Source: a virus
IMG/VR virus record: IMGVR_UViG_3300031578_000043
DNA: 56,686 bases
Direction: 5' to 3' (one strand)
Shown here: positions 10,950 to 45,705 of the stretch, in pieces
How the letters are laid out: each line of letters opens with the position of its first letter
Position numbering within the stretch: the first letter of the stretch is position 1
Translations under genes and position numbers: made by a program
The notes under the pieces: generated by a model
Database searches by the model: none
Seen by the model: the letters and a program-made list of their open reading frames with translations, nothing else
What the model was told of the DNA's origin: nothing

Positions 10950-10956
10950 GAACTAA

Positions 10957-10985: not shown

Positions 10986-11016
10986 GGCATCTGCGTTACA
11001 AATTAAAGGACGAGCG

Positions 11017-18527: not shown

Positions 18528-19358
18528 ATGTACCTGATCGCAGAGTGCGGAATAAACGGAAATGGCAGCGAGGAACTTGCGAAGCTGATGATTCGGCACG
18601 CGCACGAAGCTGGCTTTGACGCTGTGAAATTCCAAAAGCGCAGCCTTGAGCAATGCTATACCAAGGAATTTCTCGATTCTCCGCGCGAGTCACCGTGGGG
18701 AAAAACGCAGCGGGCGCAGAAGGAGGCGCTTGAGTTCTCGCGGTTGCAGTACACCCTGATCGACGCTTACTGCAAGGAATTGGGTGTGGCGTGGTCGGCG
18801 TCAGCCTGGGACTTGGATTCTCAGGAATTTATTCACTCGTTCAATGTTCCGTTCAACAAAGTGGCGTCACCAATGCTCGGTAACTGGCCGCTATTGCGGA
18901 AGATCGCCAGCGAGCGCAAGCGCACCTTCATTTCTACCGGCATGAGCACGCTGGCCGAAATAGACGAAGTGGTTGCGCTGTTCCGCAAGGCCGATTGCCC
19001 GTTCGAGTTGATGCACTGCAATTCGACCTATCCGATGCCGGAAGATCAGGCGAACCTGAACTGCATTCCGATGCTGCGCGATCGGTACGGGTGTGAGGTC
19101 GGCTACTCGGGCCATGAAACCTGCCTCACGAAAGTCTGCGTTGCTGCGGTTGCTCTCGGGGCGAGTTCAATCGAGCGCCATATCACGTTGGAGCGGGCGA
19201 TGTACGGGAGCGACCAAGCCGCCTCAATCGAAACACACCATCTGCGGGATTTCGTCGAAACGGTGCGGGCGATTCCTGCGATTCTCGGAACGGGGATCAA
19301 GGACGTTACCGAAAGCGAATGGCCGGCGCGGAAGAAACTGCGGGTAGAAGTCGCATGA
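18528..19358 (+). CDS. NeuB-family nonulosonic/sialic acid synthase (no obvious C-terminal SAF domain)
   Basis: YLIAECGINGNGSEELAKLMIRHAHEAGFDAVKFQKR, FISTGMSTLAEIDEVV, LMHCNSTYPMPEDQANLNCIPMLRDRYGCEVGYSGHE and GASSIERHITLER match conserved NeuB/PseI/LegI blocks. 276 aa. Confidence 0.85.
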   Translation: MYLIAECGINGNGSEELAKLMIRHAHEAGFDAVKFQKRSLEQCYTKEFLDSPRESPWGKTQRAQKEALEFSRLQYTLIDAYCKELGVAWSASAWDLDSQEFIHSFNVPFNKVASPMLGNWPLLRKIASERKRTFISTGMSTLAEIDEVVALFRKADCPFELMHCNSTYPMPEDQANLNCIPMLRDRYGCEVGYSGHETCLTKVCVAAVALGASSIERHITLERAMYGSDQAASIETHHLRDFVETVRAIPAILGTGIKDVTESEWPARKKLRVEVA

Positions 19359-20053
19359 ACGTCGTTTGCATAATCGGCGCTCGTTCTGGCTCCAAGGGCG
19401 TTCCGGGGAAAAACATTCGCCACTTGTCCGGTCATCCCCTGCTCGCTTACTCAATCCGTTCGGCCCAGGAAGCGGGCATTGCCGAAATCGTCGTATCGAC
19501 CGATTCAATCGAATACGCCAGCATCGCCAAAAAGTACGGTGCGCGTGCGGTCTTGAGACCAGATGCGATTTCTCAGGACAATTCGACCGATTTCCAGTAC
19601 ATCGCTCACGCGATTTCGACGTTTGACCCTCCTGCGGATTTGATCGTCCACCTTCGGCCGACTACACCTCTGCGAGACCCGCTGTTGATCCAAGGGGCGG
19701 TCAATGATCTGAAAGCGTGCGAGTCTGCAACGGCTTTGCGGTCCGTGGAGGAAATGAGCGAGTCTGCGTGGAAGTGCTTCGAGATATTTTCCGGTAAGCT
19801 GATCGGATTGGGCGGGGAGGCTTCGCTGGATCAATTCAACGATCCGCGTATGGAATTCAAAAAGACATTCAGGCCGAACGGCTACGTCGATGTGATTCGC
19901 ACGTCAATGATTTACAAGGGGCTTCTTCACGGCGATGCGGTTCTCCCGTACATCACGCCAGTCGTTACCGAAATCGACACTGAGGAAGATTTTGAGTTTG
20001 TGCAGTATCAGGCCCGCAAGCATCCTGAGTTGGTGCGGGCGTTTTTCCCATGA
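19355..20053 (+). CDS. Acylneuraminate (CMP-nonulosonic acid) cytidylyltransferase family protein
   Basis: N-terminal IIGARSGSKGVPGKNIRHLSGHPLLAYSI is the NeuA/CMP-sugar synthetase signature. 232 aa. ATGA-coupled to the NeuB-like gene. Confidence 0.8.
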   Translation: MNVVCIIGARSGSKGVPGKNIRHLSGHPLLAYSIRSAQEAGIAEIVVSTDSIEYASIAKKYGARAVLRPDAISQDNSTDFQYIAHAISTFDPPADLIVHLRPTTPLRDPLLIQGAVNDLKACESATALRSVEEMSESAWKCFEIFSGKLIGLGGEASLDQFNDPRMEFKKTFRPNGYVDVIRTSMIYKGLLHGDAVLPYITPVVTEIDTEEDFEFVQYQARKHPELVRAFFP

Positions 20054-21402
20054 GCGCATATTCTTTTTCGCGTGAGTCTCGGGCGGTGCCGTTTGTGAAC
20101 ACCGAGCACAGACACATTCACACCGAAATTCCGGCGCCTGGGGCGAAGGAAATCCTTGAGCGTTTGGATGTAGTCGAGTCCAGATCAATGCACGGCCAAT
20201 TGCCGATTGTGTGGGATCATGCTTTAGATCACTACGTAGCGGACAATTGCGGAAATATGTTTCTGGATTTCACGTCCGGTATTTTCGTTGCGAACGTCGG
20301 GCATTCAAATCTGGCGGTCGTGGAAGCGGTGCGGGAAGCAATGAATATCGAGCCGCTTCATTCCTACGCATACGCTACCGAAATCCGCGCCAAGTATCTC
20401 GAACGTCTAACGCAATGGTCCGGTTTCGAAAAAGCCTTCCTGCTATCGTCTGGAACTGAGGCGACTGAAGCGGCCTTGAAGCTCATTCGGATGCGCGGCC
20501 AAAAGCTCGGAAAACGGAGACCGGGAATTCTCTGCATCGACGGAAACTGGCACGGTCGGACGATGGGCGCGCAGTTGATGAGTTCCAATGCCGCACAAAA
20601 GGCGTGGATCGGTTTCGACGACCCGAGCATTACCCATTTTCCGTTTCCTACGCAGGAAATTCTGACTATCCGCCAGCAGACAGCGGCCGAGTTTTTCCGC
20701 GATTGGTTGCCGCGGATTCTGGCGGCGAAGGGGATTGATGCGCGCAGGGACTTCTGCGGAGTGATGCTTGAGGCTTTCCAAGGGTGGTCGGCGTGGTTCT
20801 ATCCTCCCGATTTCGTCCAAGAGATTGAAAAGTGGTGCCGGGAAAACAGTCTCCTGCTGTGCTTTGACGAAATGCAGGCAGGATTCGCCAGGACAGGCCG
20901 GAAGTTCGGTTATGAGCACTACGCGGTCAAGCCTGACCTGATCTGCGTCGGCAAGGGCATGGGCGGCGGATTGCCCCTTTCCGGCGTTCTGGGCAGGGCT
21001 GAGATTCTCGATCTGCCGGAAGTCGGTAATATGTCGAGCACGCACGGCGGGAATCCGCTTTGCTGCGCGGCCGGTCTTGCGGTGATTGACGAAATCGAGC
21101 GGCTGGATTTGGTGAACGAAACGGCGAGAAAGGAAATGATCCTTTTCCCGGCGTTGGCGAATTTGCGCCTGAGTTGCTGGAGCCGAGTAACCGGCTTCTG
21201 GGGGCATGGCTTGATCGCAGCGGTGCATTTCGATTCTGCGGAACTGGCAAGCCGTGTTGCCGAGCGGTGTATGGAGAAGGGCGTATTGGTGGTGCATACG
21301 GGGCGCGAGAGTATCAAACTCGGGCCTCCGCTTACAATTCCAGATGCGGCGTTGATCGAGGGCGTCGAGGTCATCGCTGAGGCGATAAAGGAACTGGCGT
21401 GA
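20050..21402 (+). CDS. Class-III PLP-dependent aminotransferase
   Basis: SSGTEATEAALKLIR, DEMQAGFARTGRKFGYEHY and a VGKGMGGGLPLSG block (PLP-Lys region) typical of the acetylornithine/GABA/GSA aminotransferase family. Confidence 0.85.
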   Translation: MSAYSFSRESRAVPFVNTEHRHIHTEIPAPGAKEILERLDVVESRSMHGQLPIVWDHALDHYVADNCGNMFLDFTSGIFVANVGHSNLAVVEAVREAMNIEPLHSYAYATEIRAKYLERLTQWSGFEKAFLLSSGTEATEAALKLIRMRGQKLGKRRPGILCIDGNWHGRTMGAQLMSSNAAQKAWIGFDDPSITHFPFPTQEILTIRQQTAAEFFRDWLPRILAAKGIDARRDFCGVMLEAFQGWSAWFYPPDFVQEIEKWCRENSLLLCFDEMQAGFARTGRKFGYEHYAVKPDLICVGKGMGGGLPLSGVLGRAEILDLPEVGNMSSTHGGNPLCCAAGLAVIDEIERLDLVNETARKEMILFPALANLRLSCWSRVTGFWGHGLIAAVHFDSAELASRVAERCMEKGVLVVHTGRESIKLGPPLTIPDAALIEGVEVIAEAIKELA

Positions 21403-21839
21403 TGCTCGGATTGCGTCATGTCGGCATTGTCGTATCTGACCTGAATGAAGCTATCGGGTTCTATTGCAGCTTGCTCGGTTTTCAGCACGTTCAAAAAGCG
21501 TATGAGTTCGGACATTCTCTCGATTCGATGCTTGCGCTTGATGGAGCGAAAGTAACCACGGTAAAACTGATTGCGCCGAACGGCGGCATGATCGAGTTGT
21601 TGAAATTCGATGAGCCAGGGAGCTCTCCGGTAGGCCGCGCGATTTTCGACCTTGGCATTTCACACATTGCGATCACGGTGCAAAACTTGGACAAGGAATA
21701 TCAGCGGTTGAAACTGTGTGGCGTGGAGTTCGTTTCCGCGCCTGTGCAATCTGGGGCGGCGCGGGTTGCGTTCGCTATCGACCCGGAGGGGAATCGAGTC
21801 GAGCTGGTTCAGGATGTTACTTTTCCAAGGGCGGCGTGA
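21399..21839 (+). CDS. VOC (glyoxalase/bleomycin-resistance/epimerase-like) family protein
   Basis: LGLRHVGIVVSDLNEAIGFYCSLLGF ... GISHIAITV ... AFAIDPEGNRVEL, paired beta-alpha-beta-beta-beta modules. Confidence 0.7.
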   Translation: MMLGLRHVGIVVSDLNEAIGFYCSLLGFQHVQKAYEFGHSLDSMLALDGAKVTTVKLIAPNGGMIELLKFDEPGSSPVGRAIFDLGISHIAITVQNLDKEYQRLKLCGVEFVSAPVQSGAARVAFAIDPEGNRVELVQDVTFPRAA

Positions 21840-22537
21840 AAGTTTGTAAGAAATGTGGCGGGACTGATTTTGTGCCTAGCGGGTATTGCAGACCGTGTGC
21901 AAAAGTGCGTGTTGCTAAATGGCAAAAAGAGCATCCAGAGAGAGGTATAGCGGCGTCTAAAAAGTGGCGCGAAGCGCATCGAGAGAAATCGAGAGCAAAC
22001 ACAAAAAAATGGCAAGAAAAAAATAAAGAATATCGCGCTGAGTATGGGCGCAAGTGGAGAGAGGAACATCAGGAAGAACATAAAGCTGCAAAAAAGAAGT
22101 GGCGTGAAAAGAACAAAGATAGACACGAGCAATATCAAATAGCGTGGGAAACAGCGAATCGCAAGCGTCGTAGTGCCGGCCGTAAGGAATGGCGAGAACA
22201 GAACAGGGAGAGAGATCGTAAAAATTTAATTGAGTGGGCAAAAAAGTATCCCGATAGAGTTCGCATCAAAGCGCAGAACAGAAGGGCGAAAAAGAAAAGT
22301 AATGGCGGCAGTCTGTCGAGAGATATAGTCTCAAAATTACTGCAATTGCAAAAAGAGAAATGCGCGATCTGCCGCGTTCCGCTTAATGGGGAGTACCATC
22401 TAGACCACATATTGCCTTTAATCCTCAAGGGCAGAAATGAAGATAAAAATATGCAATTACTTTGTCCTCCATGTAACCTGTCTAAGTCGAGCAAGCATCC
22501 TATAGAATTCATGCAATCGAGAGGGTTTCTATGTTGA
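21836..22537 (+). CDS. HNH homing-endonuclease-like protein interrupting the sugar cluster
   Basis: GTGA-coupled start. CKKCGG...CRPC. Long KKWRE-type basic repeats. C-terminal EYHLDHILPLILKGRNEDKNMQLLCPPCNLSKSSKHPIEFMQSRGFLC. A/T-rich compared with its neighbours. Confidence 0.8.
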   Translation: MKVCKKCGGTDFVPSGYCRPCAKVRVAKWQKEHPERGIAASKKWREAHREKSRANTKKWQEKNKEYRAEYGRKWREEHQEEHKAAKKKWREKNKDRHEQYQIAWETANRKRRSAGRKEWREQNRERDRKNLIEWAKKYPDRVRIKAQNRRAKKKSNGGSLSRDIVSKLLQLQKEKCAICRVPLNGEYHLDHILPLILKGRNEDKNMQLLCPPCNLSKSSKHPIEFMQSRGFLC

Positions 22538-23334
22538 GCGGCTTATCCCAAATCAACGTTGAGTTGACTTCCCGTTGTTCTAAGAAAACGGCCTGTTTTA
22601 TGTGCGGTCATCAATCGGCGGTCGTCAATCCTCTGTTGAATTTTGGCGATATGGATTTTGCTCTTGTCGAGTCAATAGAGCGGCAGATTGGCGCAGGGGT
22701 TATCGTGAGTCTGCACAAAGATGGAGACCCAGTAGATTATGAGAGATTGGGAGACGTGCTCCGCGTGTTAAAAAAGCACCCTATTTCTGTGGTCACGCAT
22801 GGCGAACGTCTGAACGAAAAAGCGGCAGAAATTATAGGTCTGTGCACCACGGTAACTTGCAGCGTGATACCGAACGACCCGGACAGGGAGATACAGTTAG
22901 AGTCGCTGCGCGGATTCCTCGCCAAGAAAGGCGCTCGGGCGCCGATGGTGCAGTTGAAATTTGTCGGGATCGTACAGAATCCTGAACCTTATCTAAGCCT
23001 AGGATTACCCGTTATAGGGCGTGCCCTACATTCAAAAAAAGGCAATTGGAACTATTACAAAATCGACCCGATCATTCCAGAGGTCCGCGTGTGCCTCGAT
23101 TTCCTCGGCCGGCCGACGGTCGATTGGAAGGGCAATCTCTACAATTGCAATCGGTTGGACGTAAAAGGCGAAGGACTGCTCGGGAACTTGAACGAAAGTA
23201 CGCTAGAGGCGCTATGGAACGGTCCCGAGCGTGCCAGGATGCTTCGGGCGCACTTGGCGGGGCGGCGGCAGGATGCTAACCCGTTGTGCGCTTCCTGCCA
23301 ATTCTACGGGGTCAGCACGCCATCGGGCGGTTAG
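22531..23334 (+). CDS. Radical SAM protein with SPASM/twitch-like C-terminal Cys motif
   Basis: N-terminal VELTSRCSKKTACFMCG (Cx5Cx2C variant of the cluster-binding motif). C-terminal GNLYNC...GLLGNLNESTLEALWNG...CASCQFY. Confidence 0.6.
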   Translation: MLSGLSQINVELTSRCSKKTACFMCGHQSAVVNPLLNFGDMDFALVESIERQIGAGVIVSLHKDGDPVDYERLGDVLRVLKKHPISVVTHGERLNEKAAEIIGLCTTVTCSVIPNDPDREIQLESLRGFLAKKGARAPMVQLKFVGIVQNPEPYLSLGLPVIGRALHSKKGNWNYYKIDPIIPEVRVCLDFLGRPTVDWKGNLYNCNRLDVKGEGLLGNLNESTLEALWNGPERARMLRAHLAGRRQDANPLCASCQFYGVSTPSGG

Positions 23335-33613: not shown

Positions 33614-34230
33614 GCTTGTACGAAGACTTGGGCGTTCACAAGGACGCTCCGAAAGCAGAAATAAAGAAAGCCTACCGCAAGAAGGCGATGAAGCTGCATC
33701 CTGATCGAAAGGGTGGAGACCCGGAGAAGTTTCACGCCATTCAGAGAGCTTACGATGTTCTCAACGACGACGCGCGCAGAGCCCACTACGATGCGACTGG
33801 CGAGGAGGGTAAGGCAGATAAGCAGGGCGCTTTGATTCAGCGGCTTGCGGCCTTGTTTATGCACTTCGTCGAGACTGCGGACGTAGATCATGCCGACATT
33901 ATCGTGCTGATGCGACAGGCGTTGCTTGATGGAAAGAACAAGACTCTCATTGCGTTACAGCAGCAGCACAAGAAAATCGAGCGGTACGAGCGAACGAAAA
34001 AGCGGCTCAAGAAAAAAGGCGACGGTGAAAACCTGTTGGCGCAATTGATTGACGGACAGATCAGCATTGTCCAAAGAGGCATCGAACTCGGCAAATCCGA
34101 AATCGGCGTGGTCGAGGAATTGATTAAGATGGTGGACGGGTATTCGTATGCGGCCGACGCCGGAAGTCAGTACGCGACCATGCAGGGGCTTGCTGGAATA
34201 GCGTTTGGCCCCGGAGTGTGGCAGCGATGA
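33610..34230 (+). CDS. J-domain (DnaJ-like) protein
   Basis: SLYEDLGVHKDAPKAEIKKAYRKKAMKLHPDRKGGDPEKFHAIQRAYDVLNDDARRAHYD contains the HPD motif. No DnaJ Zn-finger or C-terminal domains. Confidence 0.8.
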   Translation: MSLYEDLGVHKDAPKAEIKKAYRKKAMKLHPDRKGGDPEKFHAIQRAYDVLNDDARRAHYDATGEEGKADKQGALIQRLAALFMHFVETADVDHADIIVLMRQALLDGKNKTLIALQQQHKKIERYERTKKRLKKKGDGENLLAQLIDGQISIVQRGIELGKSEIGVVEELIKMVDGYSYAADAGSQYATMQGLAGIAFGPGVWQR

Positions 34231-35150
34231 TCGGCGCCGTCTGCCCGCTGTGCCATGAACTGACCGGAGACGTTCTTGCAAGCACGCTGCGCCGTGGCGT
34301 CGGAACGGTTTTTCATTGCTCGAAGTGTGACCTTGGGTTTCTGGTTGGGGCGATGCGAGAAGGCTATTACCATCGTGAGTACCGCGATACGGTCAATCAC
34401 AAGGCCGAAGGGGGCGAGACGACACCGCGGGAGATATTCGATGTGTATTCGAGATATCAGGGCGGGCGTTTGGCATTTGTTCGACCGAAAATGGAATTCG
34501 GCGGTTCAATCCTTGAGATCGGCGCGAGCGCAGGGCAGTTCATTACCGGGTTCGGCCAGTGTCGCCGCTGCGCTATAGAGCCTGACCCGCGTTGCTGCGC
34601 CTTCATGCAGGCAGCGGGAATCGAGACCGATGCAAACTATCTGAAGAACTCACGATTCTACAACGAAAAGTTTGATGTTGTCTGTGCGTTCCAAGTGCTT
34701 GAGCATGTCGATGAGCCAAGATCGTTCCTCTCGGAAGTGAAGCATGTCCTGAAACCCGGTGGCACGGCGTTCATCGAAGTACCGAACCTATATGATCCGT
34801 TGCGATCGGTGTGGGGCATTCCCGAGTACGAGAAATTTTACTTTCACGCGGACCACCTATTCTATTTCTCTTGGAAGTCGCTGGTGAAGTACGCAGTGAA
34901 GGCCGGATTCACAAAGCCGCAAGTATTCTTCACGCAGGACTATTCGTTGCTCAATCACATCCACTGGCTCATGAACAAAGGCCCGCAAGCCGACTGTCAC
35001 GTTGGCCTAGGGCCGGTGAAGTTCGAAGGCAAGGACTCGGGCATGGCGGCGTGGCTGTCGCATAAGATGTCCGCGTTGAACGAGGAATACATTTCCATGC
35101 TGGAATCGACTGGCGAGACTTCGAATTTAACTCTCGTCTTGACCAATTAG
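34218..35150 (+). CDS. Class I SAM-dependent methyltransferase with N-terminal zinc ribbon
   Basis: CPLC...CSKC. Motif I ILEIGASAGQF. Post-I/II DVVCAFQVLEHVDEPRSFLSEVKHVLKPGGTAFIEVPN. Confidence 0.75.
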   Translation: MAAMIGAVCPLCHELTGDVLASTLRRGVGTVFHCSKCDLGFLVGAMREGYYHREYRDTVNHKAEGGETTPREIFDVYSRYQGGRLAFVRPKMEFGGSILEIGASAGQFITGFGQCRRCAIEPDPRCCAFMQAAGIETDANYLKNSRFYNEKFDVVCAFQVLEHVDEPRSFLSEVKHVLKPGGTAFIEVPNLYDPLRSVWGIPEYEKFYFHADHLFYFSWKSLVKYAVKAGFTKPQVFFTQDYSLLNHIHWLMNKGPQADCHVGLGPVKFEGKDSGMAAWLSHKMSALNEEYISMLESTGETSNLTLVLTN

Positions 35151-37298: not shown

Positions 37299-37354
37299 CC
37301 ACAAGAAAGGCTGCGCGCGGGCTCCTCCTCCCCCTGCGACGTTCAGCCGGTTCG

Positions 37355-37383
37355 GGCCGACCTTAATCAGTCGGCCTTTTTTT
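37355..37383 (+). terminator. Rho-independent terminator after the portal gene
   Basis: GGCCGAC-cttaatca-GTCGGCC followed by T7. The loop contains the stop codon of the antisense RHH gene. Confidence 0.75.
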
Positions 37384-37512
37384 CGCCTGCTTTTTCAGGT
37401 AATCCTCTATGGAGCGTCGTATCAGGTCGGACACCTTTAGGCCGGTTTTTTGGGAGAGCGATTTCAGTGCTGAAATCATTTGAGGCGGCATAAAGAAATT
37501 GAACTGATCCAT
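37363..37512 (-). CDS. Ribbon-helix-helix (CopG/Arc-like) protein, antisense to the structural operon (below track cutoff)
   Basis: Hand-translated MDQFNFFMPPQMISALKSLSQKTGLKVSDLIRRSIEDYLKKQAKKRPTD, the typical RHH beta-strand plus two-helix pattern. Confidence 0.55.
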   Translation of the reverse strand: MDQFNFFMPPQMISALKSLSQKTGLKVSDLIRRSIEDYLKKQAKKRPTD

Positions 37513-37584
37513 GCGAAAAGTATAGCAATTTCACTCTGCGTTTGTCTATATAAGCAATATAAAGTAGTAAAATCAATAACTTGC

Positions 37585-37613
37585 TTGACTTTTTGAAACG
37601 GCAGGAATACGAT
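37585..37613 (+). promoter_or_regulatory. Candidate promoter for head/tail genes
   Basis: TTGACT-N17-TACGAT in an AT-rich intergenic region. Confidence 0.4.
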
Positions 37614-37730: not shown

Positions 37731-38156
37731 ATGCCGGATATGCCAACAGGTATGCCGATGCCAGGGGCTCCCGCTCCGGGTGCTGGCATTGTCCCTCGTC
37801 CGATGGGACCGCCTGCGGCTTCACCCGGCATCATGACCCCAACCCCAGCGGCAGCGCCGAGTGCCAACCTTGGCGCTCAGGCGCACGCCGCCGGCCAAAT
37901 GAAGCAGGCATTGCACATGGTTGAAATGGCATTGCCGAATCTTCCGCTCGATTCTCCGTTGCACAAAGTCGCAACGTCGTTCATCACCGGAACCGCGAAG
38001 CATCTTGGAAGCGCAGGCGGGGGAGATCAAGGAATTCAAGCGTCGATGTTGAGAGACCTCGCGCTGAAAGCGCAGCAATCTGCGCCCCCACTCAGACCCG
38101 CCGGTCCTCCCGGCGCACCACCCGGCGCACCAGCGCCATCACCAGCAGGAGCCTGA
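37731..38156 (+). CDS. Hypothetical Pro/Ala-rich head-module protein
   Basis: 141 aa from ATG 37731. Pro-rich N- and C-termini flank a helical core. Confidence 0.5.
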   Translation: MPDMPTGMPMPGAPAPGAGIVPRPMGPPAASPGIMTPTPAAAPSANLGAQAHAAGQMKQALHMVEMALPNLPLDSPLHKVATSFITGTAKHLGSAGGGDQGIQASMLRDLALKAQQSAPPLRPAGPPGAPPGAPAPSPAGA

Positions 38157-38157
38157 A

Positions 38158-38352
38158 ATGTTCAAAAAACAAGACACCGCCTTTCCGACGACTCAGTACA
38201 ACAGCCTGATCGAGAACGATCCGATGATCGTCAAGGTTCCGATGGACAACGTGGACTTCGGTTCGCGCAAAGGCACGATGGCGAAAGTCAGAAACCCGGC
38301 AAGCGGCGGAAACGGTCGCCTCGGCATTCGTCACGTCGAAAGCAAGAAGTAG
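38158..38352 (+). CDS. Hypothetical protein
   Basis: 64 aa. Confidence 0.45.
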   Translation: MFKKQDTAFPTTQYNSLIENDPMIVKVPMDNVDFGSRKGTMAKVRNPASGGNGRLGIRHVESKK

Positions 38353-38358
38353 ATCGCC

Positions 38359-38937
38359 ATGGCCGAGATCAACGATTTCGAGCTTGCCGAACTACGCAAG
38401 CTGCAAGCGTTCCACAAGTCGCTGTATGACGACGCGGCTGTGGGAATGGACTTCCGCAAACTGATCCGCCGGAAATACCCGCAGGCTTCAATCCCCGAAC
38501 TCGACGCGCTGGCGAAGGCCGAAGAAACCGGCAGCGCCATCGAAAAGAAATTCGAGGAACTGTCCAAAGGGGCGACGGAGAAGATCGACAAATTCCTGAC
38601 CGACCGGCAAAAGGAACAGGACGACGCCGCTGTTGCCGCTTACCAAGAGCGGTTCGACAAGATGGTGAAAGCCCGTGGATACACCGAAGACGGACAGAAG
38701 AAACTCATCGAACTGATGAAAGCCAAGGGCATTCGGGAACCCGAAGACGCGGCGATCATTTTCGAGACGATGCAGCCGAAAATCAAACCGGCGGCGAAAC
38801 AATTTTCCTCGCGCATGGCGTTCGTCTCGCCTGACGGGAAAGATGACGAGTCGTTTAAAGATTTGATGCGCGATCCTGACCAATGGATGGGCGATCAACT
38901 GATGACGGCCATTGCGGAAAACCACGAAGAAGAATAA
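38359..38937 (+). CDS. Putative scaffolding protein
   Basis: 192 aa, highly charged and helical, immediately upstream of the major capsid gene. Confidence 0.55.
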   Translation: MAEINDFELAELRKLQAFHKSLYDDAAVGMDFRKLIRRKYPQASIPELDALAKAEETGSAIEKKFEELSKGATEKIDKFLTDRQKEQDDAAVAAYQERFDKMVKARGYTEDGQKKLIELMKAKGIREPEDAAIIFETMQPKIKPAAKQFSSRMAFVSPDGKDDESFKDLMRDPDQWMGDQLMTAIAENHEEE

Positions 38938-38948
38938 AGGAGTAAATC

Positions 38949-39968
38949 ATGCCAGTTTTGAACACGGGTTTAGTCCCCGGCGGAAGTGTCGGTGCCGAGC
39001 TAACCGCCGCAACACGCAGAGCAGTCGTCCCGGCCCTGTTCGTCCAGATCTACAAAGCCACTCCGATGCTGAACCTGCTTTTTGGCACAGCCCAAAGAGC
39101 GAAAGGCGGCATGTCCCAAGTCACCGTTCCGGTGCAGGGATCGTCGTTCGTGAACTTCGCATGGACGGACTACTCGGGCGGCTTCCCTCAACCAGCGGTG
39201 CAGCCTGGAATGCAGAACGCGGAATTCAACCTCTGCGTTGGCGTGGTTCCGATCTCCTTTATGGGGATGGAAGCCCTGATTCAATCCTCGGAAGCCATCG
39301 TACCGCTGATGCGGGCTAGAATGGCCGATGCGAAGACTGTCGCTGTCCAGGCCATGTCCACAGCGCTTTTCACCAACTCCTCGAACCTGCCGAACGCTTC
39401 TCAGATCATCAATGGTCTGCCGCAGGCTTTCGATGACGGGACCAACGTCAACAGTTACGGCGGAATTTCCAGGACTGCCAGCCCGTTCTGGAAGTCAACG
39501 CTGGTTACCGCAGCCGGCGCAGTCAATACCCGTTCCGCGATGCTCTCCTACCTCGTCCAAACTACTGCCCTGAACGGCGGCGAAGCTCCTGACTTCTGCG
39601 TGATGAGCCCTTCGGACTGGACGACTCTGATGCAGGACTTCCTGACGCTGGAACGGTTCAACACCACCCCGGCCTCGAAGTACGGCAAGGACGAATCGGT
39701 GAACGCCGGCTTCCGTGGTCTGATGCTCGGTGACACCCCGTTCTTCATGGACCCGTTCTGCCCGAAAGGGACGGCGTACATGCTGAACACGAAGTATTTC
39801 GCCGCCTACGTCTCGGAAGACGCTCCGTTCGCCTTCTCTGGGTTCTACTCGGCAATCCCGAATCTGCAAATCGCAAATGTGGGGGTCGTGATCATAGCTA
39901 TGCAAACGGTCTGTGCCAAGCCCGTTAGTGGGATGCAAATTTCTGGAATAACAGGCGGCGCGTTCTAG
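38949..39968 (+). CDS. Major capsid protein
   Basis: 339 aa following the scaffold candidate. Size and position are typical of podovirus-type HK97-fold capsid proteins. Confidence 0.7.
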   Translation: MPVLNTGLVPGGSVGAELTAATRRAVVPALFVQIYKATPMLNLLFGTAQRAKGGMSQVTVPVQGSSFVNFAWTDYSGGFPQPAVQPGMQNAEFNLCVGVVPISFMGMEALIQSSEAIVPLMRARMADAKTVAVQAMSTALFTNSSNLPNASQIINGLPQAFDDGTNVNSYGGISRTASPFWKSTLVTAAGAVNTRSAMLSYLVQTTALNGGEAPDFCVMSPSDWTTLMQDFLTLERFNTTPASKYGKDESVNAGFRGLMLGDTPFFMDPFCPKGTAYMLNTKYFAAYVSEDAPFAFSGFYSAIPNLQIANVGVVIIAMQTVCAKPVSGMQISGITGGAF

Positions 39969-40001
39969 GCCAACAACGACAAAAAGCAAGGAGAAAGAAT
40001 C

Positions 40002-41129
40002 ATGATGTTAGGCGGAAGCGGAATCGGCCTCGGTCTGAGGGGGAAAGTAACCAACGCACTGACGTTGCCGGCGGGGGAGACTTACATCGTCCCTGCGGGG
40101 AACTACGCCGTCAATCTTGGTCCATACACTGAGCTTCAATATCTCGATCCTGTTACCGGGATTTGGAGAACTCAGTTATGGCCGGGGCAAGACGGGCAAT
40201 TCGCAATCGACGGCGCGAACTACCGCCTTGCCAATCTCACCGGCTGCCCCGTAGCCGCTGTCATCACGACCGCGCTTGCGACTGGCGCAGCGACCGGCAT
40301 CGGCGTAACTGCAACGCTCATGACCGTCACGGCTTCGTCCGGTTCTTCGACCTGGTGCCCGATTGTCGGCGGTGCGCTTTCGCTGACCTGCGTTACCGGC
40401 GTCACCGGATCGAGCGTCGGTGCTGGCTATCTTTTCCCGCCAACAGCGATCATTTCGGCGCCGCCTCCCGGCGGTCTTCAGGCGACGGCTCACGTTACCG
40501 GAATTCCGACGACCGGCGCGTTGCTTGCCGCTCAAGTCATCATCGACAACCAGGGCGCGGGTTATCCTGTAGCCTCGACCGGGATTTCGACGGCGACCAT
40601 CACCTTCGTCAACGACCCTCGGGACACCGCAGGCAGCGGCGCCACTGTTCGCCTTGGCGCGACCGGAACCGGGCAGTTGACGGCTCTGTATCCGCTGACC
40701 CAAGGCGTTCCGCTGACGGGGGCTCCGACGCTGGCGTTCGGCGTGGGCGCGGCTGGCGCTACGTCGATCATGAACTTCACCGTGACTGCGATTGCCTCTG
40801 GCACGACGAACACGCAGACCTACGCCACGGGCACAACCCCAATCGTTACCACCATCGGGAACATCGTTTCGGCTACACCTGCCTGGACGAATCCGATTCA
40901 CGAAAAAGCCTCCACCTTCCCGCGGCCGGCGCGGATTCAGGCGGGTCTGGCTTCGAACGTCGTTACCTCAACGGGCGCCGTTGTCGAAGATGGCGGGTTC
41001 GGGATTCAACAAGCCCCGAGCGCGATTGTCATTGGGCAACTGCTGGCGATTACCGGCGTGACGCTGGGGACCGCTCCGCTGCTTACGATTGGCGGCGTGA
41101 CGGACACAAGTTGGCTGCAGCCGATCTAA
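40002..41129 (+). CDS. Thr/Ser/Gly/Ala-rich capsid-associated protein (decoration/head-fibre candidate)
   Basis: 375 aa with repeated G-x-G-Y and T/S-rich beta-like segments, directly after the capsid gene. Confidence 0.45.
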   Translation: MMLGGSGIGLGLRGKVTNALTLPAGETYIVPAGNYAVNLGPYTELQYLDPVTGIWRTQLWPGQDGQFAIDGANYRLANLTGCPVAAVITTALATGAATGIGVTATLMTVTASSGSSTWCPIVGGALSLTCVTGVTGSSVGAGYLFPPTAIISAPPPGGLQATAHVTGIPTTGALLAAQVIIDNQGAGYPVASTGISTATITFVNDPRDTAGSGATVRLGATGTGQLTALYPLTQGVPLTGAPTLAFGVGAAGATSIMNFTVTAIASGTTNTQTYATGTTPIVTTIGNIVSATPAWTNPIHEKASTFPRPARIQAGLASNVVTSTGAVVEDGGFGIQQAPSAIVIGQLLAITGVTLGTAPLLTIGGVTDTSWLQPI

Positions 41130-41143
41130 CCTCATGAGGCTTC

Positions 41144-41998
41144 ATGGAACAGCCTCAAGGGTATGTCGATACGGTGCTCGATGATGGTCGTGTTACGCCT
41201 CTGACGATTCAGACGTACACGCTCATCGAGCAAGGGCATCTAGCCAAAAACATCGTCGAGAACCTTGGGAGGGACATTCCAAGGTTCGTCAATCGTGTCG
41301 GGCTGGGTCAGATCAGGCACGCCCCTCTTGCGATAGTCTGCGCGGGGCCGACTCTCGTTGAAACAATCGACCGGGTACGCGACTTCGAAAACGTACTCGT
41401 CTGCGGATCTGCTCACGATTTCGTTGTTCGTCAAGGCATCATCCCGAACTACGCCGTGGTGTGCGACGGCGGCAAAGATGACAAGGGCAATCTGTCACTG
41501 CCTCAGAAAGATACGACCTACCTCATCGCCTCTCAGTGCGATCCGAGTTTGTTCGATCACCTGTCTGACTACCATGTGGAAATGTGGCACTACCGCGGCC
41601 AAGCTGCGCCCACAATAGAGGAAGAAGGCAGGGTGCTTAACGGGGAGCCGTCCTTGGCGTGGGGGTCAAGCGTCGGCATCGTTTCGATATCGCTTGCGAT
41701 GCACCTTGGATTTCAGCACATCCATTTCTTCGGTCTTGACTCGTCCTACGGAGACCACGGGATGAGCCATCACTGCTGCAAAATAGCAGGCAGCATGGAG
41801 TACAAGAAAGTGCCAGTCAAAGTCGGAGAGAAAGTTTTTATTTCCGACTTGGCATTGATGGAACAGACCAATCAATTTTTCCGTTTTATTGAAACGCAGC
41901 ATCAATTCATCCACGGCACTATTCACGGCAACGGTTTAATCGCTGAAATGGCGAGACAAGGAGAGCCTGGGCTAGAGAAGTACATCAGCCTCGCATGA
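41144..41998 (+). CDS. DUF115/Maf-like (motility-associated-factor family) putative nonulosonic-acid transferase
   Basis: PLAIVCAGPTL...LVCGSAHDFVVRQGIIPNYAVVCDG...YLIASQCDP...GSSVGIVSISLAMHLGFQHIHFFGLDSSYG follows the conserved DUF115 pattern (GPSL loop, I-PD-x-V-x-x-D, GGSV...A..LG...I.L.G.D). Confidence 0.55.
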   Translation: MEQPQGYVDTVLDDGRVTPLTIQTYTLIEQGHLAKNIVENLGRDIPRFVNRVGLGQIRHAPLAIVCAGPTLVETIDRVRDFENVLVCGSAHDFVVRQGIIPNYAVVCDGGKDDKGNLSLPQKDTTYLIASQCDPSLFDHLSDYHVEMWHYRGQAAPTIEEEGRVLNGEPSLAWGSSVGIVSISLAMHLGFQHIHFFGLDSSYGDHGMSHHCCKIAGSMEYKKVPVKVGEKVFISDLALMEQTNQFFRFIETQHQFIHGTIHGNGLIAEMARQGEPGLEKYISLA

Positions 41999-42002
41999 AA
42001 AC

Positions 42003-42890
42003 ATGCTTGCTAAATATCTTTCAAGAACGTCGATCCTCCTACACGACGCTTCGTTTCAATTCTATCCGCAAGCCAATGTAATCTCGTTCATCAACGAGGC
42101 GAGGGGACAGGTAGCGGCCGAAGGACAGTGCATCAAAGTCCTGCCTCCCGGAACGAACGGAATCGCCTCGATTACCGTCAACACTGGCGGGAATTATGCG
42201 GGAACTCCTACGGTCGTCATCACCGGGCCTGGAAGCGGCGCCGTAGCGACTGCGCACATGACCGGGAGTGCCGTAACCAGCATCACCGTTGGCACGGCTG
42301 GAAGCGGTTATGACAACACCACGGTTATCAGTTTCACAGGCGGGACTCCCACGGTTCAGGCCACCGCAACCCCTGTCATCAACTGCGTCAACACCGTCGC
42401 CAATCAGGAAATCTACACCTTCTCCTCTGTCAATACGCTTGCTCAACTGACTGCGGGCGTCGCATCAATCCTATGGGTTTCGTCTGTAGCCGTTTCTTGG
42501 GGCGCGTTGAAGCCGACTCTGAGGCAGTGGAATTGGGACGACCTCCAAGCCTACATCCGGTCCTATCCCGTCGTCTCCGGTCAACCTGCGATGTTCGCTC
42601 AATTCGGCCAAGGCGAGGGCGGTTCGATTTATCTTCAACCCGTTCCAACTCAAGCCGCGGCGATGGAGTGGAACTGCGTCTGCACGCCGATTGATCTTGT
42701 TGATGACACGACGGCTGAGGCTATTCCTTATCCGTGGACCGATGCCGTCCCTTACTTCGCTGCGTATCTAGCGTTCCTGAGCGGAAGAAGGCCAATCGAA
42801 GCGAAAGGGATGTACGACATTTACGACGCGACGATGAAACGCTCGCGTTCCCAGAGCGAGTCTAGCTACATACCAGATTTCTACGCATAA
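42003..42890 (+). CDS. Virion structural protein (adaptor/neck candidate) with inserted G-x-G-Y repeat domain
   Basis: 295 aa in the head-tail joining region. Confidence 0.45.
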   Translation: MLAKYLSRTSILLHDASFQFYPQANVISFINEARGQVAAEGQCIKVLPPGTNGIASITVNTGGNYAGTPTVVITGPGSGAVATAHMTGSAVTSITVGTAGSGYDNTTVISFTGGTPTVQATATPVINCVNTVANQEIYTFSSVNTLAQLTAGVASILWVSSVAVSWGALKPTLRQWNWDDLQAYIRSYPVVSGQPAMFAQFGQGEGGSIYLQPVPTQAAAMEWNCVCTPIDLVDDTTAEAIPYPWTDAVPYFAAYLAFLSGRRPIEAKGMYDIYDATMKRSRSQSESSYIPDFYA

Positions 42891-44656
42891 TGGCCCAACT
42901 CGATCAAATCCTCGCGCAAGAAACGCCGCCGCTTTTCTACCTTCAAGGTTTCGACGGAGTTAACCTTCACGACGACCGCAGGGCTATAGGCGATCAAGAA
43001 TGTTCGTGGATGGAGAACTTCATTCCCCTCGGGGCGGGGAATGCGAGGACGCTCTACGATAACGCGACAATCCTTTACACCGCTGCCCATACCATCGTCT
43101 ATGACTTTTCGTTCAACATCGGGACGACGTTTTACAAGGCCCTGTTTCTTTCCAACGGCTCTGCAATAGCGGTCAATCTCGCTGGCGGCACGACCTCGAT
43201 GGGCGGGGCCGGGACGTTCGCTGTTTCTCCAAGCCTTCCTGCGTGCGCTCAGTGGGGCGCCTCAGGCATAGTCATTGTGACCTCCGCTGGATACTACGCT
43301 TGGGACGGTACGCTTTATTCTCCCGGTGCCTTTGCTCCCGCGTGGCTGTGCGGGTTCACTACTCTGGTTACAACCGGAACGACGCATACCAACACGACGC
43401 TTGACTCGGTTGGAAGCGTGGTGGGTATCGTTACCGGAATGACGGTCACAAGCGGGACCGGAGATATTCCTGTCGGGACTCTGGTTCAAACCTTCACTTC
43501 GGGGCCGAACGTCATTACGCTGACTCAAGCTGCGACGGGCTCTAATTCAGGCGAAGTGATTAACGTCGGCTGGGCGATGCCCTCTGGTCTTACCGGAACT
43601 GCAATCGAGTTCTACCAGCAAAGAGCATGGGTAGTGAACGGCGCTGAGATTTCGTTTTCCGCTCCAGCGAACGGGGCGAACTTTTCAACGGCGAATGGCG
43701 GCGGGACGATTATCTCAAGCGATGGTTTCCTGAAAACCGCTTTCCTGAACGTCAAGCAGTGCAATAGCTTTTTGTACCTCTTTGGCGACGGCTCGATCAA
43801 TGTCGTCTCGAATGTGCAGACTTCGGGCTCCCCATCGGTAACGACGTTCAACAATCAGAACGTGGACCCTCAGACCGGATTGGGATGGAGGGACGCATTG
43901 ACCGTTTTGGGAAACTCGGTGTGCTTCGTGAATCCTACCGGGGTGTACCAACTCTACGGCGGTAACGCAGTTAAGATTTCGAGCAAGATCGACAAACTCT
44001 TTGAGAAGGCGAATTTCTCCACGATAAAGCCGACCCTGTTCGTGACCTCGCTTTTCGGCGTTCGCTGTTTGGGCATGGTGATAAATACCCTGGACCCGAC
44101 GACGGCCACGCAAAGAACGTTGATGTGCCTGTGGAACGAAAAGAAATGGTTCATCGCTTCGCAGACTTTGACCGGCATTTACGCGACGACGATGCAGGTA
44201 GGGGCAAATCCGCAAGGGTGGGCGAACGACGGATTGAATGTATTTCAGCTTTTCCAAACACCATCGAATACGTTGCAGAAAAAGATTCAGTCGAAGCTCT
44301 GGGCTGGACGCTCTAACCTCATCTTCAAAACGGTCATGGACGTTTATACGGAGGCGCAAGACGAAAGCAATACAGGCGTCGTTTTGAGCGGGACACTGGA
44401 TTCTGACACGCAGGCAGCGGTACCGTTCACGATCAATTCAAACATCACGTTCCAGAATAATGCGCTTGGCACGATCACCTTCGTCAACAATGCAAATCAG
44501 GCTTTGAATTTCACGACCAATCCGCAAGGGGTTCAAGGATCTGGCGCAAGTCAAGTCGGGATGAGACTCGGGCTTACTTTTACCTCTACATCTGAGGACT
44601 TCACGCTGATCGGGTGTGGCGTGAGTTATTGCGAAGAAAGCTACTATGGACATTGA
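42890..44656 (+). CDS. Virion structural protein (tail tube/nozzle candidate)
   Basis: 588 aa, start overlaps the upstream stop (TAATG). Confidence 0.45.
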   Translation: MAQLDQILAQETPPLFYLQGFDGVNLHDDRRAIGDQECSWMENFIPLGAGNARTLYDNATILYTAAHTIVYDFSFNIGTTFYKALFLSNGSAIAVNLAGGTTSMGGAGTFAVSPSLPACAQWGASGIVIVTSAGYYAWDGTLYSPGAFAPAWLCGFTTLVTTGTTHTNTTLDSVGSVVGIVTGMTVTSGTGDIPVGTLVQTFTSGPNVITLTQAATGSNSGEVINVGWAMPSGLTGTAIEFYQQRAWVVNGAEISFSAPANGANFSTANGGGTIISSDGFLKTAFLNVKQCNSFLYLFGDGSINVVSNVQTSGSPSVTTFNNQNVDPQTGLGWRDALTVLGNSVCFVNPTGVYQLYGGNAVKISSKIDKLFEKANFSTIKPTLFVTSLFGVRCLGMVINTLDPTTATQRTLMCLWNEKKWFIASQTLTGIYATTMQVGANPQGWANDGLNVFQLFQTPSNTLQKKIQSKLWAGRSNLIFKTVMDVYTEAQDESNTGVVLSGTLDSDTQAAVPFTINSNITFQNNALGTITFVNNANQALNFTTNPQGVQGSGASQVGMRLGLTFTSTSEDFTLIGCGVSYCEESYYGH

Positions 44657-45000
44657 TCGTGTCTGAAATCATCGGCCTCATCGGATTCGACGCCGAAGAC
44701 CAAGGCGCTTCGGACAGGTGGGCGTTCTCGAACGCAAACCATCATACTGCGGTTCACGCCGCAATTCAGGCGGCGGGAAAGGGGAATCTTGCCGTCACTG
44801 AAATCTACCCTTTTCGTTGGGAAAACCCGAGCCAATTTCTGTTGCGGCATCAAAGTTTGCACAATGCGGTGAACCAGACATTAGGTGTTGCTGGAACGGA
44901 CCTTACGGGTATAGACTTCAAGAACAAAGCCCAATTGGATCAATGGAATCAGGCGCATTTCGATGAACACAAAACTTGGGCGGCTTTACTAGGAATTTAA
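44653..45000 (+). CDS. Hypothetical structural-module protein (start uncertain: TTG 44653 or GTG 44659)
   Basis: ORF open from 44614 with no ATG. Overlaps the upstream stop. Confidence 0.4.
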   Translation: MIVSEIIGLIGFDAEDQGASDRWAFSNANHHTAVHAAIQAAGKGNLAVTEIYPFRWENPSQFLLRHQSLHNAVNQTLGVAGTDLTGIDFKNKAQLDQWNQAHFDEHKTWAALLGI

Positions 45001-45347: not shown

Positions 45348-45705
45348 TGAATGGTTAGTAAAGCGTCGCGGGCGATTTTATTCTGGAGAAACGCTCCGTC
45401 AATCTGTTGATGCTTTTTTAAGCATGGTTGAGAATGGCGCTACCGTACATGAGTTTCCGGATGCAATTATAGTTCTTGAGAACTATGGGCTACCAGGAAA
45501 CGTAAGAGGTTGGTTGTTGTTTGATAAATTTACAAGAGGCACGGCTAAAGCAATAAAAAAAGTGTCTGACGAATTCGATGGAAAAGCTATTTATGCCTCT
45601 ACGCACGATGAAAGGATAGCAAATCTTCTGAAACAGTTTGGCTACATCGAATATGAAAAAGATGAGCACGATTTCTTTTTAAGAAAGGATTGTCATGGGC
45701 TGTAG
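45334..45705 (+). CDS. Hypothetical protein (A/T-rich codon usage)
   Basis: 123 aa. Confidence 0.45.
   Translation: MGHLNEWLVKRRGRFYSGETLRQSVDAFLSMVENGATVHEFPDAIIVLENYGLPGNVRGWLLFDKFTRGTAKAIKKVSDEFDGKAIYASTHDERIANLLKQFGYIEYEKDEHDFFLRKDCHGL

Follow-up and report, generated by a model that had tools for sequence, protein, structure and literature searches.

The window analysed here is the whole 56.6-kb (56,686 nt) stretch of DNA of an uncultured phage. A 63-bp terminal repeat shows that it is a complete genome. Within its late head operon, the gene order on the + strand is the major capsid protein (MCP) gene (38949..39968), a 375-codon gene here called g375 (40002..41129), a 284-codon gene starting with ATG (41144..41998), and g295, encoding an adaptor/'tail protein'-like virion protein (42003..42890). 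The gaps between successive genes are 33, 14 and 4 bp, followed by a 1-bp overlap, and there is no ORF between the 284-codon gene and its neighbours. A terminator-like hairpin (37354-37377) followed by a promoter-like site (37585-37613), together spanning 37354..37613 (+), is the probable start of this operon, as no + strand terminator was found between 37377 and 44556.

The capsid gene product matches phrog_9953 (1.1e-23), and is 44% identical to annotated MCPs and 32% identical to the Mx8 major head protein. The g375 protein contains 21% Ser+Thr, 28% Gly+Ala and only 2.4% Lys+Arg. More than 245 homologues were found, with no Pfam domain. The AF2 model of g375 (pLDDT 86.3) is all beta, but a Foldseek search of this model against the PDB gave no significant match (best E 0.15). 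We regard g375 as a candidate capsid-surface (decoration-like) protein of unproven function. The g295 protein matches the tail protein family phrog_10775 at aa 127-287 and also has repeat-domain hits.

We first tested whether the 284-aa protein belongs to the DUF115 (PF01973) family, as proposed in a first-pass annotation of the sequence. Three motifs are present in the translation: LAIVCAGPTL at aa 62-71, IIPNYAVVCDG at aa 99-109 and GSSVGIVSISLAMHLGFQHIHFFGLDSSYG at aa 174-203. The PF01973 match is far beyond chance, with E 6.7e-17 and 62.2 bits against a gathering cut-off of 34.6, covering profile positions 2-169 of 171. All 70 homologues carry the precomputed PF01973 domain. However, PF01973 is now named 'MptE-like' and also contains archaeal pterin kinases, so a Pfam hit alone does not make a protein a Maf, the type of bacterial enzyme that attaches sialic-acid-like sugars to flagellin.

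To distinguish between these possibilities, the protein was compared with known structures by sequence and by predicted fold. The best PDB match by sequence was the M. magneticum Maf (5MU5), with E 0.0088 for the single protein and 9.2e-11 for the family profile, the latter aligning across profile positions 39-207 and thus spanning both halves of the domain. The AF2 model was of high confidence (pLDDT 93.1), and its top Foldseek hit was again 5MU5 (E 9.8e-11, probability 1.00, TMq 0.63 over 281 columns), which has a modified GT-A fold. The archaeal MptE, the 6-hydroxymethyl-7,8-dihydropterin pyrophosphokinase of M. jannaschii (PDB 8SD5), was the second-best fold match (E 3.5e-06), but with TMq 0.45 over 180 columns. 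In the profile search MptE aligned only over positions 29-108 (E 0.0088), which is the N-terminal nucleotide-binding half including the GxGPS loop. The C-terminal half, with the FFGxD...HH motif, matches Maf and not MptE. GT42/GT29 sialyltransferases (C. jejuni Cst-II; human ST8SiaIII, ST6GalNAc2) were also recovered by fold (E 3.5e-06 to 1e-03), with low TM-scores (0.33-0.41) and no sequence-level match. This is in keeping with a related fold and CMP-sugar donor chemistry, and the Maf central domain is reported to resemble Cst-II in the donor site, but sialyltransferase acceptors are glycans rather than protein Ser/Thr.

The experimentally critical Maf residues have counterparts in the phage protein. 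Counting through two independent HMMER alignments places MmMaf E324 and D415 at D108 and D199, and the conserved Ser (CbMaf S334), which lies 23 residues before the second Asp, at S176. D108 and D199 are invariant in 36 family members that are only 25-75% identical, while position 176 is Ser/Thr in most of these sequences but Cys or Met in a few. The protein has no TM segment, and GAGG lies 4 nt before the ATG. It differs from the Mafs in size, being 284 aa and single-domain against roughly 400-820 aa, and family members are mostly 255-310 aa. It lacks the N-terminal domain and the C-terminal (helical or TPR) domain that known Mafs use to bind their acceptor. A precedent for a minimal Maf exists in Maf-2, which lacks an acceptor-binding domain and works with a separate partner, GlfM (bioRxiv 10.1101/2023.12.03.569772), but no GlfM-like partner was identified here, although a GlfM-like fold elsewhere in the genome was not searched for. 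We refer to the phage protein as a mini-Maf, a putative CMP-ulosonic-acid:protein glycosyltransferase predicted to be cytoplasmic.

The genome also carries genes for making and activating such a sugar. These form a cassette on the + strand consisting of a short NeuB-family synthase of 276 aa (18528..19358; PF03102, 1.5e-66), a CTP_transf_3 CMP-sugar synthetase (19319..20053; PF02348, 2e-21, 77.2 bits against a cut-off of 22.6), a class-III aminotransferase (20050..21402; PF00202, 1.7e-80), a VOC/glyoxalase-fold protein (21399..21839; NCBIfam glyoxalase-family hits, and a glyoxalase Pfam hit in relatives) and a SPASM-domain protein (22531..23334; PF13186, 7.7e-09). The last is a probable radical-SAM enzyme with a C-x5-C-x2-C motif, and is separated from the rest by an HNH insertion at 21716..22537. 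A SAM methyltransferase (34218..35150, +; Methyltransf_23, 3.4e-16) lies between terminase and portal and is a probable tailoring enzyme of the same sugar system. No other glycosyltransferase was found among the approximately 64 ORFs scanned.

The first-pass annotation inferred that the phage encodes both the donor pathway and a transferase. This needs refinement, as the pathway consists only of the synthase, the activating enzyme and tailoring enzymes, and the steps that make the hexose precursor are absent. Nor can the sugar be called pseudaminic or legionaminic acid. The NeuB domain occupies aa 21-258 without a SAF domain, and the protein scores below the NeuB and PseI equivalog cut-offs (231.7 bits against 399.65 for TIGR03569, and 163 against 340.25 for TIGR03586). 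The CMP-sugar synthetase is PseF-like (6e-30) but also below cut-off (104.5 against 205.7), with the KdsB models far below theirs, and the aminotransferase is class III rather than the PseC/DegT type.

The cassette copies a widespread bacterial operon. The phage NeuB is 57-75% identical to proteins from Proteobacteria, Myxococcota, Cyanobacteria, Firmicutes, Planctomycetes and others, and these homologues gave no indication of the host. Among 80 bacterial short-NeuB loci, the CMP-transferase follows NeuB in 52, the order NeuB, CMP-transferase, aminotransferase, VOC is seen in 19, and VOC follows the aminotransferase in 17. Homologues of the methyltransferase occur in 28 of the 80, the best (1e-53) lying beside NeuB, CMP-transferase, aminotransferase and VOC, and the SPASM protein is present in the bacterial operons L163, L172 and L181 (such handles denote individual loci).

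Next we asked whether the link between the cassette and the mini-Maf holds beyond this genome. Genes in the homologous loci were identified with a GC3-based gene picker and six-frame scans. In related phages the cassette order is conserved and the SPASM protein and methyltransferase are also present. One relative carries both the donor genes and the Maf-like gene on the same 55.4-kb contig, and contig-length matches (54517 and 54427 bp) link further relatives. In the relative L011 the cassette lies inside the head module, between the portal and scaffold genes. The same pairing is shown independently by a distant SU10-like phage (L040), in which the order is epimerase, GT2, NeuB, portal, Maf-like, and by a bacterial (Lachnospiraceae) locus, L167, in which a PF01973 gene directly abuts the same operon. 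Conversely, the closest deposited relative, MW202753 (MCP 44% identical), lacks both the Maf-like gene and NeuB. However, 85 of 87 Maf-like loci show no NeuB within the sequence examined, which reaches at most 10 kb either side, suggesting that a phage-borne donor pathway is not generally required.

The link to the virion is positional. The mini-Maf family is large (1,389 clusters at E ≤ 1e-30), and an MCP-family gene ends within 2.5 kb upstream of the Maf-like gene in 32 of 44 informative phage loci, even at 22-38% identity. The Maf-like genes are often present as two or three paralogues, reminiscent of the multi-copy Mafs of Campylobacter. These paralogues are interleaved with adaptor genes and with genes for Mx8p50-like structural-module proteins of about 250 aa, which have no Pfam domain. 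The order MCP, g375, Maf-like is conserved in relatives, and the proteins between the MCP and Maf-like genes are all Ser/Thr/Gly/Ala-rich and low in charge. Nevertheless, g375 is not a universal partner of the mini-Maf. In the locus L102, g375 occurs without a Maf-like gene and is followed directly by a 252-aa g295 homologue, which is not detected by the A1 HMM used to test it as a diverged Maf-like protein, and other lineages have a 110-205-aa protein or nothing in that slot.

Taken together, these observations support the interpretation in the first-pass annotation, namely candidate virion glycosylation with a sialic-acid-like sugar. In the explanation that we consider best, and somewhat more likely than not, the mini-Maf consists of the catalytic MAF_flag10 domain only and is made late, from the same transcript as the scaffold, capsid and g375 genes. 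The short NeuB condenses PEP with a host-supplied sugar to give a 2-keto-3-deoxy 'ulosonic' acid, a sialic-acid/Kdo-like sugar, and the CTP_transf_3 enzyme makes the CMP-sugar. The aminotransferase, VOC, SPASM and methyltransferase proteins probably tailor the sugar by oxidation, amination, epimerisation or methylation. The mini-Maf would then transfer this sugar to Ser/Thr hydroxyls of one or more virion proteins before or during head assembly, most likely the capsid protein and/or the Thr-rich g375, giving released particles an acidic bacterial-type sugar coat. The donor is inferred from family chemistry and gene linkage, Maf enzymes being able to use CMP-Pse, Leg, Neu5Ac and Kdo (PMC11339370). 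There are no biochemical or proteomic data, and that the acceptor is a virion protein rests only on conserved gene position and co-transcription.

Two alternatives retain the transferase but alter the donor or the acceptor, and both appear unlikely. The virion may be glycosylated using a donor from the host, for example CMP-Kdo or a host nonulosonic acid, with the NeuB cassette being a separate auxiliary metabolic module that feeds host envelope glycan synthesis or serves some other purpose. Mafs accept CMP-Kdo promiscuously (PMC11339370), only 2 of the 87 Maf-like loci have NeuB in the sequence examined, the cassette is 18 kb from the mini-Maf gene among early genes, and its bacterial homologues lie in LPS-type clusters. 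However, in this complete genome the cassette has no other transferase to serve among the ORFs scanned, and its positions in L011 and L040, the L167 arrangement and the absence of NeuB from the nearest Maf-less relative all point to a connection. Slightly less likely is that the mini-Maf, with the cassette, modifies a host structure such as LPS, capsule or teichoic acid, flagellin, pili or the S-layer, to block superinfection or alter the cell surface. Bacterial PF01973 and NeuB genes lie in cell-envelope glycan clusters, the NeuB operon in LPS or teichoic-acid-type ones, so PF01973 enzymes can act on acceptors other than flagellin, possibly on non-protein ones. Classical Mafs modify flagellin, and phage- or prophage-encoded enzymes that modify nonulosonic acids of the host capsule are known, such as the Acinetobacter epaA/epaB epimerases and O-acetyltransferases (PMC12053666, PMC6586298). 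Those enzymes tailor the capsule during lysogeny, are not transferases and are not in structural modules. In contrast, the mini-Maf gene is embedded in the late head operon and not near lysogeny genes, no integrase or flagellar genes were found among the ORFs scanned, and the position after the capsid gene is conserved across very divergent phages. The protein is also soluble and lacks the flagellin-binding domains of Mafs.

It is very unlikely that the protein is not a glycosyltransferase at all but an MptE-like kinase or pyrophosphokinase, another nucleotide-dependent small-molecule enzyme, or a catalytically inert assembly factor. The automated name '6-hydroxymethylpterin diphosphokinase MptE-like', which BFVD relatives also carry, and the second-best fold match are in its favour, but the MptE match is confined to the N-terminal half, the Maf catalytic acids are invariant, no pterin or folate genes were found among the ORFs scanned, and the gene is linked to NeuB and CMP-sugar genes. 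Least likely is modification of phage DNA, as a hypermodification delivered around the time of packaging. The cassette is interspersed with DNA methyltransferase and HNH genes, the transferase lies in the packaging/head region, and PLP and radical-SAM enzymes may also occur in thymidine-hypermodification pathways. However, no PF01973 or sialyltransferase-fold enzyme is known to act on DNA, no hydroxymethylase or kinase genes typical of base-hypermodification pathways were found in the ORFs scanned, the bacterial operon sits in envelope-glycan clusters, and the DNA methyltransferase and HNH genes vary between relatives like mobile insertions.

The only established case of self-glycosylation of phage virions that we found is that of mycobacteriophages, in which phage-encoded transferases decorate the capsid and tail tube subunits with glycans and alter antibody recognition (Freeman et al. 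2023, Cell Host Microbe 31:1216; cited in PMC12619734 and PMC12691614). Those enzymes are probably conventional nucleotide-sugar glycosyltransferases rather than PF01973/sialyltransferase-fold enzymes, their sugars are probably not ulosonic acids, and a phage-encoded donor-synthesis cassette is probably absent. No report of a Maf-type enzyme acting on a phage virion was found. Sialic-acid-like sugars placed by a Maf-type enzyme would be a second, unrelated chemistry, would give a function to a family now mislabelled 'pterin diphosphokinase', and would bear on how phages mask or tune their surface against host receptors, defence, grazing or aggregation. It would also provide a naturally minimal protein O-sialyltransferase, of interest to glyco-engineers already exploiting the much larger CbMaf. 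A broader reading, which is possible but remains tentative, is that the family (at least 1,389 clusters at 50% identity) is a general system by which environmental podophages O-glycosylate their own capsids with bacterial sialic-acid/Kdo-like sugars, with the donor coming either from the host or, as here, from a captured pathway, and with acceptor recognition working without any of the flagellin-binding domains of classical Mafs.

A megablast search of positions 38000-45000 against deposited phages and a tblastn search of the mini-Maf against 50,697 phage records gave no match, and the protein has no PHROG family. In IMG/VR, a single-protein scan found nothing and an alignment-based scan was needed. 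A Maf-like protein fused to Methyltransf_23 occurs in the locus L053, but the methyltransferase of the window is not BLAST-similar to the fused domain, so this fusion supports only a family-level link. Lastly, the conserved bacterial operon NeuB, CMP-transferase, class-III aminotransferase, VOC (± MTase, SPASM) points to an uncharacterised ulosonic acid that occurs in many phyla.

The two ORFs singled out in the first-pass annotation, which had proposed a Maf/DUF115-like transferase inside the capsid module, were confirmed at 40002..41129 (375 aa, hereafter g375) and 41144..41998 (284 aa), both on the + strand. The three motifs on which that annotation based its DUF115 assignment lie at residues 62-71, 99-109 and 174-203 of the 284-aa protein. 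Pfam gave a single hit for this protein, PF01973, with E 6.7e-17 and 62.2 bits against a gathering score of 34.6, covering 2-169 of 171 profile positions. The upstream ORF 38949..39968 is a major head protein (phrog_9953, 1.1e-23), 44% identical to annotated capsid proteins of two spring-water phage genomes and 32% identical to the Myxococcus phage Mx8 major head protein. ORF 18528..19358 is a NeuB-family synthase (1.5e-66), and 19319..20053 is a CTP_transf_3 cytidylyltransferase (2e-21).

The two ends of the window (1-63 and 56624-56686) share an exact 63-bp direct repeat, so that it is probably a complete (circularly assembled or terminally redundant) 56.6-kb phage genome, with 55% GC. The genome encodes YqaJ/ERF recombination genes, a helicase, a ParB-like protein, DNA methyltransferases, several HNH endonucleases and the sugar cassette. 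These are accompanied by terminase, then a DnaJ-domain protein (33610-34230) and a Methyltransf_23 SAM methyltransferase (34218-35150), then the portal (a weak SU10_portal match), followed by scaffold, capsid, g375, the PF01973 protein, an adaptor/'tail protein'-like g295, and tail proteins. The DnaJ-domain protein and the methyltransferase are conserved in relatives; the J-domain protein might recruit host DnaK for head assembly. No integrase and no other glycosyltransferase were found among the about 64 ORFs scanned.

A terminator-like hairpin (37354-37377) follows the portal gene, a promoter-like site lies at 37585-37613, and no + strand terminator occurs before 44556. The gaps between capsid, g375, the Maf-like gene and g295 are 33, 14 and 4 bp, and a GAGG lies 4 nt before the ATG at 41144. 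The gene is therefore part of the late head transcript. The protein has no hydrophobic segment (maximum Kyte-Doolittle 19-residue mean 1.36), so it is cytoplasmic.

PF01973 is now called 'MptE-like' and contains both the Maf flagellin glycosyltransferases and the archaeal pterin pyrophosphokinase MptE, so the Pfam hit alone does not decide the function. To separate the two, sequence, predicted fold and catalytic residues were compared. The best PDB match of the single protein is 5MU5, the M. magneticum Maf (E 0.0088). A profile of 36 family members matches 5MU5 at 9.2e-11 across profile positions 39-207, while M. jannaschii MptE matches only positions 29-108, at 0.0088. An AlphaFold model built on the same alignment has pLDDT 93.1 and pTM 0.91. 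In a Foldseek search with this model, Maf 5MU5 was matched with E 9.8e-11 and TMq 0.63 over 281 aligned columns, MptE 8SD5 with E 3.5e-06 and TMq 0.45 over 180 columns, and GT29 sialyltransferases with E 3.5e-06 to 1e-03 and TMq 0.33-0.41 over 228-327 columns.

E324 and D415 of M. magneticum Maf are critical for activity, as are the equivalent D272 and D357 of C. botulinum Maf and a conserved Ser 23 residues before the second Asp (bioRxiv 10.1101/2020.06.03.131540). Counting through both HMMER alignments places E324 at D108, D415 at D199 and the Ser at S176, while the HH pair after D415 aligns with H209/H210. D108 and D199 are invariant, and H210 nearly so, in an alignment whose members are 25-75% identical to the query. 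The protein is therefore a Maf-type enzyme with an intact active site, not an MptE kinase. It consists of the catalytic domain only. Known Mafs have additional N- and C-terminal domains, and the C-terminal one (helical or TPR) binds flagellin (PMC11339370; bioRxiv 10.1101/2023.12.03.569772). However, the latter preprint shows that a Maf without a binding domain (Maf-2) works with a separate small partner, GlfM, and a catalytic-domain-only Maf is thus a plausible working enzyme.

Next we examined the family and its genomic setting. An initial search found 70 homologues, nearly all of 265-300 aa and unnamed, several of which lie on ~54-kb contigs. An exhaustive profile search of 1.84 billion cluster representatives found 8,379 clusters at E ≤ 1e-3 and 1,389 at E ≤ 1e-30; most are 255-310 aa, and some are fusions or tandem duplications. 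None was found in the 50,697 deposited phage genomes or in PHROGs. BFVD holds uncultured-phage relatives labelled 'MptE-like', some of them fused to methyltransferases.

Context look-ups and alignment-based scans yielded 87 distinct loci. Among close relatives the order scaffold, MCP, g375, Maf-like, g295, g588 is fixed. With an iterated capsid HMM, 32 of 44 loci with enough upstream sequence have a capsid gene of this family ending within 2.5 kb upstream of the first Maf-like ORF, the gap usually being 220-640 bp, even where the Maf-like proteins are only 22-38% identical. The slot between them holds a family of 110-205-aa proteins with the same Ser/Thr/Gly/Ala-rich, low-charge composition as g375, although in some loci it holds nothing. 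In 24 of the 87 loci there are two or three Maf-like paralogues, interleaved with an Mx8p50-like gene and followed by an Mx8p51/SU10-adaptor-like gene, an arrangement that recalls the multi-copy maf genes of Campylobacter. Phage loci with two or three paralogues just after the capsid gene were seen around the Maf-like hits of L023, L025, L032, L035, L039, L053 and L084. One paralogue, at 8542-9876 of L053, is fused to a Methyltransf_23 domain, and the Maf-like protein at 9590-10843 of another locus, L055, has a 150-aa N-terminal extension. In the SU10-like phage L040 the Maf-like gene follows the portal directly. Mx8 itself and the nearest deposited relative (MW202753) have the same structural order without a Maf-like gene, and L102, a 62-kb phage contig (JGI 3300045825 Ga0485827_0000046), has MCP, a g375 homologue and a g295 homologue at 8900-12700 with no Maf-like gene. 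The Maf-like genes therefore behave as accessory insertions that recur in head and connector modules, a pattern that fits a modifying enzyme, not a structural part.

On the donor side, the NeuB of this phage is short (276 aa) and has no SAF domain. It scores below the NeuB and PseI equivalog cut-offs, and the cytidylyltransferase scores below the PseF and KdsB cut-offs. The sugar is therefore not identifiable as Neu5Ac, Pse or Leg. The genes for NeuB, CMP-transferase, class-III aminotransferase, VOC and SPASM proteins form a cassette that recurs in relatives. In the window the cassette is split between the VOC and SPASM genes by an HNH gene (21716-22537), one of three HNH endonuclease ORFs; the others lie at 14921-15232 and at 32963-33613, the last following the terminase. 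Relatives (loci L009, L010 and L011) carry HNH, DNA-methylase or LAGLIDADG insertions at different places, so these look like mobile homing elements. The SPASM protein has a C-x5-C-x2-C motif (C16, C22, C25; window 22531-22620) in place of the canonical radical-SAM C-x3-C-x2-C, and only its SPASM domain is detected by Pfam.

Bacterial counterparts of NeuB are 57-75% identical in many phyla. In the 80 best bacterial loci, the short NeuB is partnered by a CMP-transferase in 52, a homologue of the window's head-module methyltransferase in 28, a class-III aminotransferase in 19, a VOC protein in 17 and a SPASM protein in 5, and the gene order is the same as in the phage. The methyltransferase therefore probably belongs to the sugar system. 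Two bacterial loci, L163 and L181, have the full set, and L139 and L140 have a methyltransferase homologue at 1e-53. The conserved bacterial operon (short SAF-less NeuB, [SIS/HAD], CTP_transf_3, class-III aminotransferase and VOC, with or without a methyltransferase and a SPASM radical-SAM enzyme) was seen around position 8000 of L109, L121, L122, L139, L140, L161, L163, L164, L167, L170, L179 and L181, and occurs in Pelagibacteraceae, Methylophilaceae, Planctomycetes, Desulfobacteraceae, Firmicutes, Omnitrophica and others. The accompanying SIS and HAD-phosphatase genes hint at a sugar-phosphate substrate, and the loci are LPS-type or teichoic-acid-type clusters. The phage has therefore captured most of a conserved bacterial pathway for an unidentified, probably aminated and methylated, CMP-activated ulosonic acid, while still depending on the host for the precursor. 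Roles for the SPASM enzyme in alcohol oxidation, the aminotransferase in amination and the VOC protein in isomerisation are inferred by us from family chemistry.

The linkage of donor genes and transferase extends beyond this genome. One 55.4-kb contig carries both the cassette and the head-module Maf-like gene. In L011 (IMGVR_UViG_3300003465_000008), a 54.4-kb relative, the whole cassette, with a C5 DNA methylase inserted, lies at 462-6821 on the opposite strand between the portal and scaffold genes, 3.4 kb from the Maf-like gene; the cassette is therefore mobile within the genome. In L040, whose Maf-like protein is 26% identical and which has bona fide SU10 portal and capsid genes, the order is epimerase/dehydratase, GT2, NeuB, portal, Maf-like. 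In L167, a Lachnospiraceae locus, a 428-aa PF01973 protein directly precedes NeuB, SIS/HAD, CMP-transferase, AT3 (the class-III aminotransferase), VOC and the methyltransferase. Furthermore, the nearest Maf-less deposited relative also lacks NeuB. Against a general link, only 2 of 87 Maf-like loci show NeuB within the 10 kb examined on either side. Most mini-Mafs must therefore use host donors if they are glycosyltransferases, which is credible because Mafs accept CMP-Kdo and CMP-Neu5Ac (PMC11339370; bioRxiv 10.1101/2023.12.03.569772).

We consider it more likely than not that the mini-Maf O-glycosylates one or more virion proteins with the CMP-ulosonic acid made by the cassette, although there is as yet no biochemical evidence. 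The enzyme class, the active site and the genetic linkage are well supported, but the donor class is inferred from family chemistry and linkage, and the acceptor only from conserved position and co-transcription. The capsid protein is the most general neighbour, while in this clade g375 is the adjacent, Thr-rich (15.7% Thr) protein, predicted to be all-beta (pLDDT 86) with no significant PDB fold match. g375 and g295 share a short 'GxGY..PT..I..P..G..ATAH.TG' segment (g375 aa 140-167 and g295 aa 62-88; window 40140-40170 and 42060-42090 regions), weakly similar with a BLASTP E of 0.026. The aa 53-147 region of g295 that contains it matches repeat regions of very large 'baseplate wedge' and 'virion structural protein' PHROGs, and it may be a common surface-exposed beta domain.

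Other explanations remain possible but are less likely. The virion might be glycosylated using host donors, with the cassette serving another purpose, or the enzyme might modify host envelope structures; both are unlikely, the second slightly more so. A role other than glycosyl transfer, either MptE-like or inert, is very doubtful, and modification of DNA is a remote possibility.

In how it works, the protein is closest to the Maf flagellin glycosyltransferases, with which it shares the domain, the predicted fold, the catalytic residues and the linkage to NeuB. It lacks their architecture and is not encoded in a flagellar locus, and we therefore regard it as a minimal, phage-borne variant and not as a Maf proper. 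In biological role, the closest precedent is mycobacteriophage virion glycosylation (Freeman et al. 2023, as cited in PMC12619734 and PMC12691614), a system that probably uses a different enzyme class and different sugars. No report of a Maf-type or nonulosonic-acid system acting on phage capsids or virions was found in full-text searches, which did not cover most subscription journals. The evidence for the present system is coherent and independently replicated across lineages, and the family is very large and mis-annotated.

Elsewhere in the genome, a YdcK beta-solenoid / bactofilin-like protein (PF18836, 1.5e-31) is encoded on the minus strand at 23952-24680, between the sugar cassette and the terminase region. 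The ORF at 45695-47755 encodes a 686-aa protein with 24% Ser+Thr, 33% Gly+Ala and repeated ~PDTSxLSGxAxQLTTAA units, which has no Pfam family and only a weak PHROG hit of unknown function, and which may be an internal/ejection protein or a fibre-like protein.
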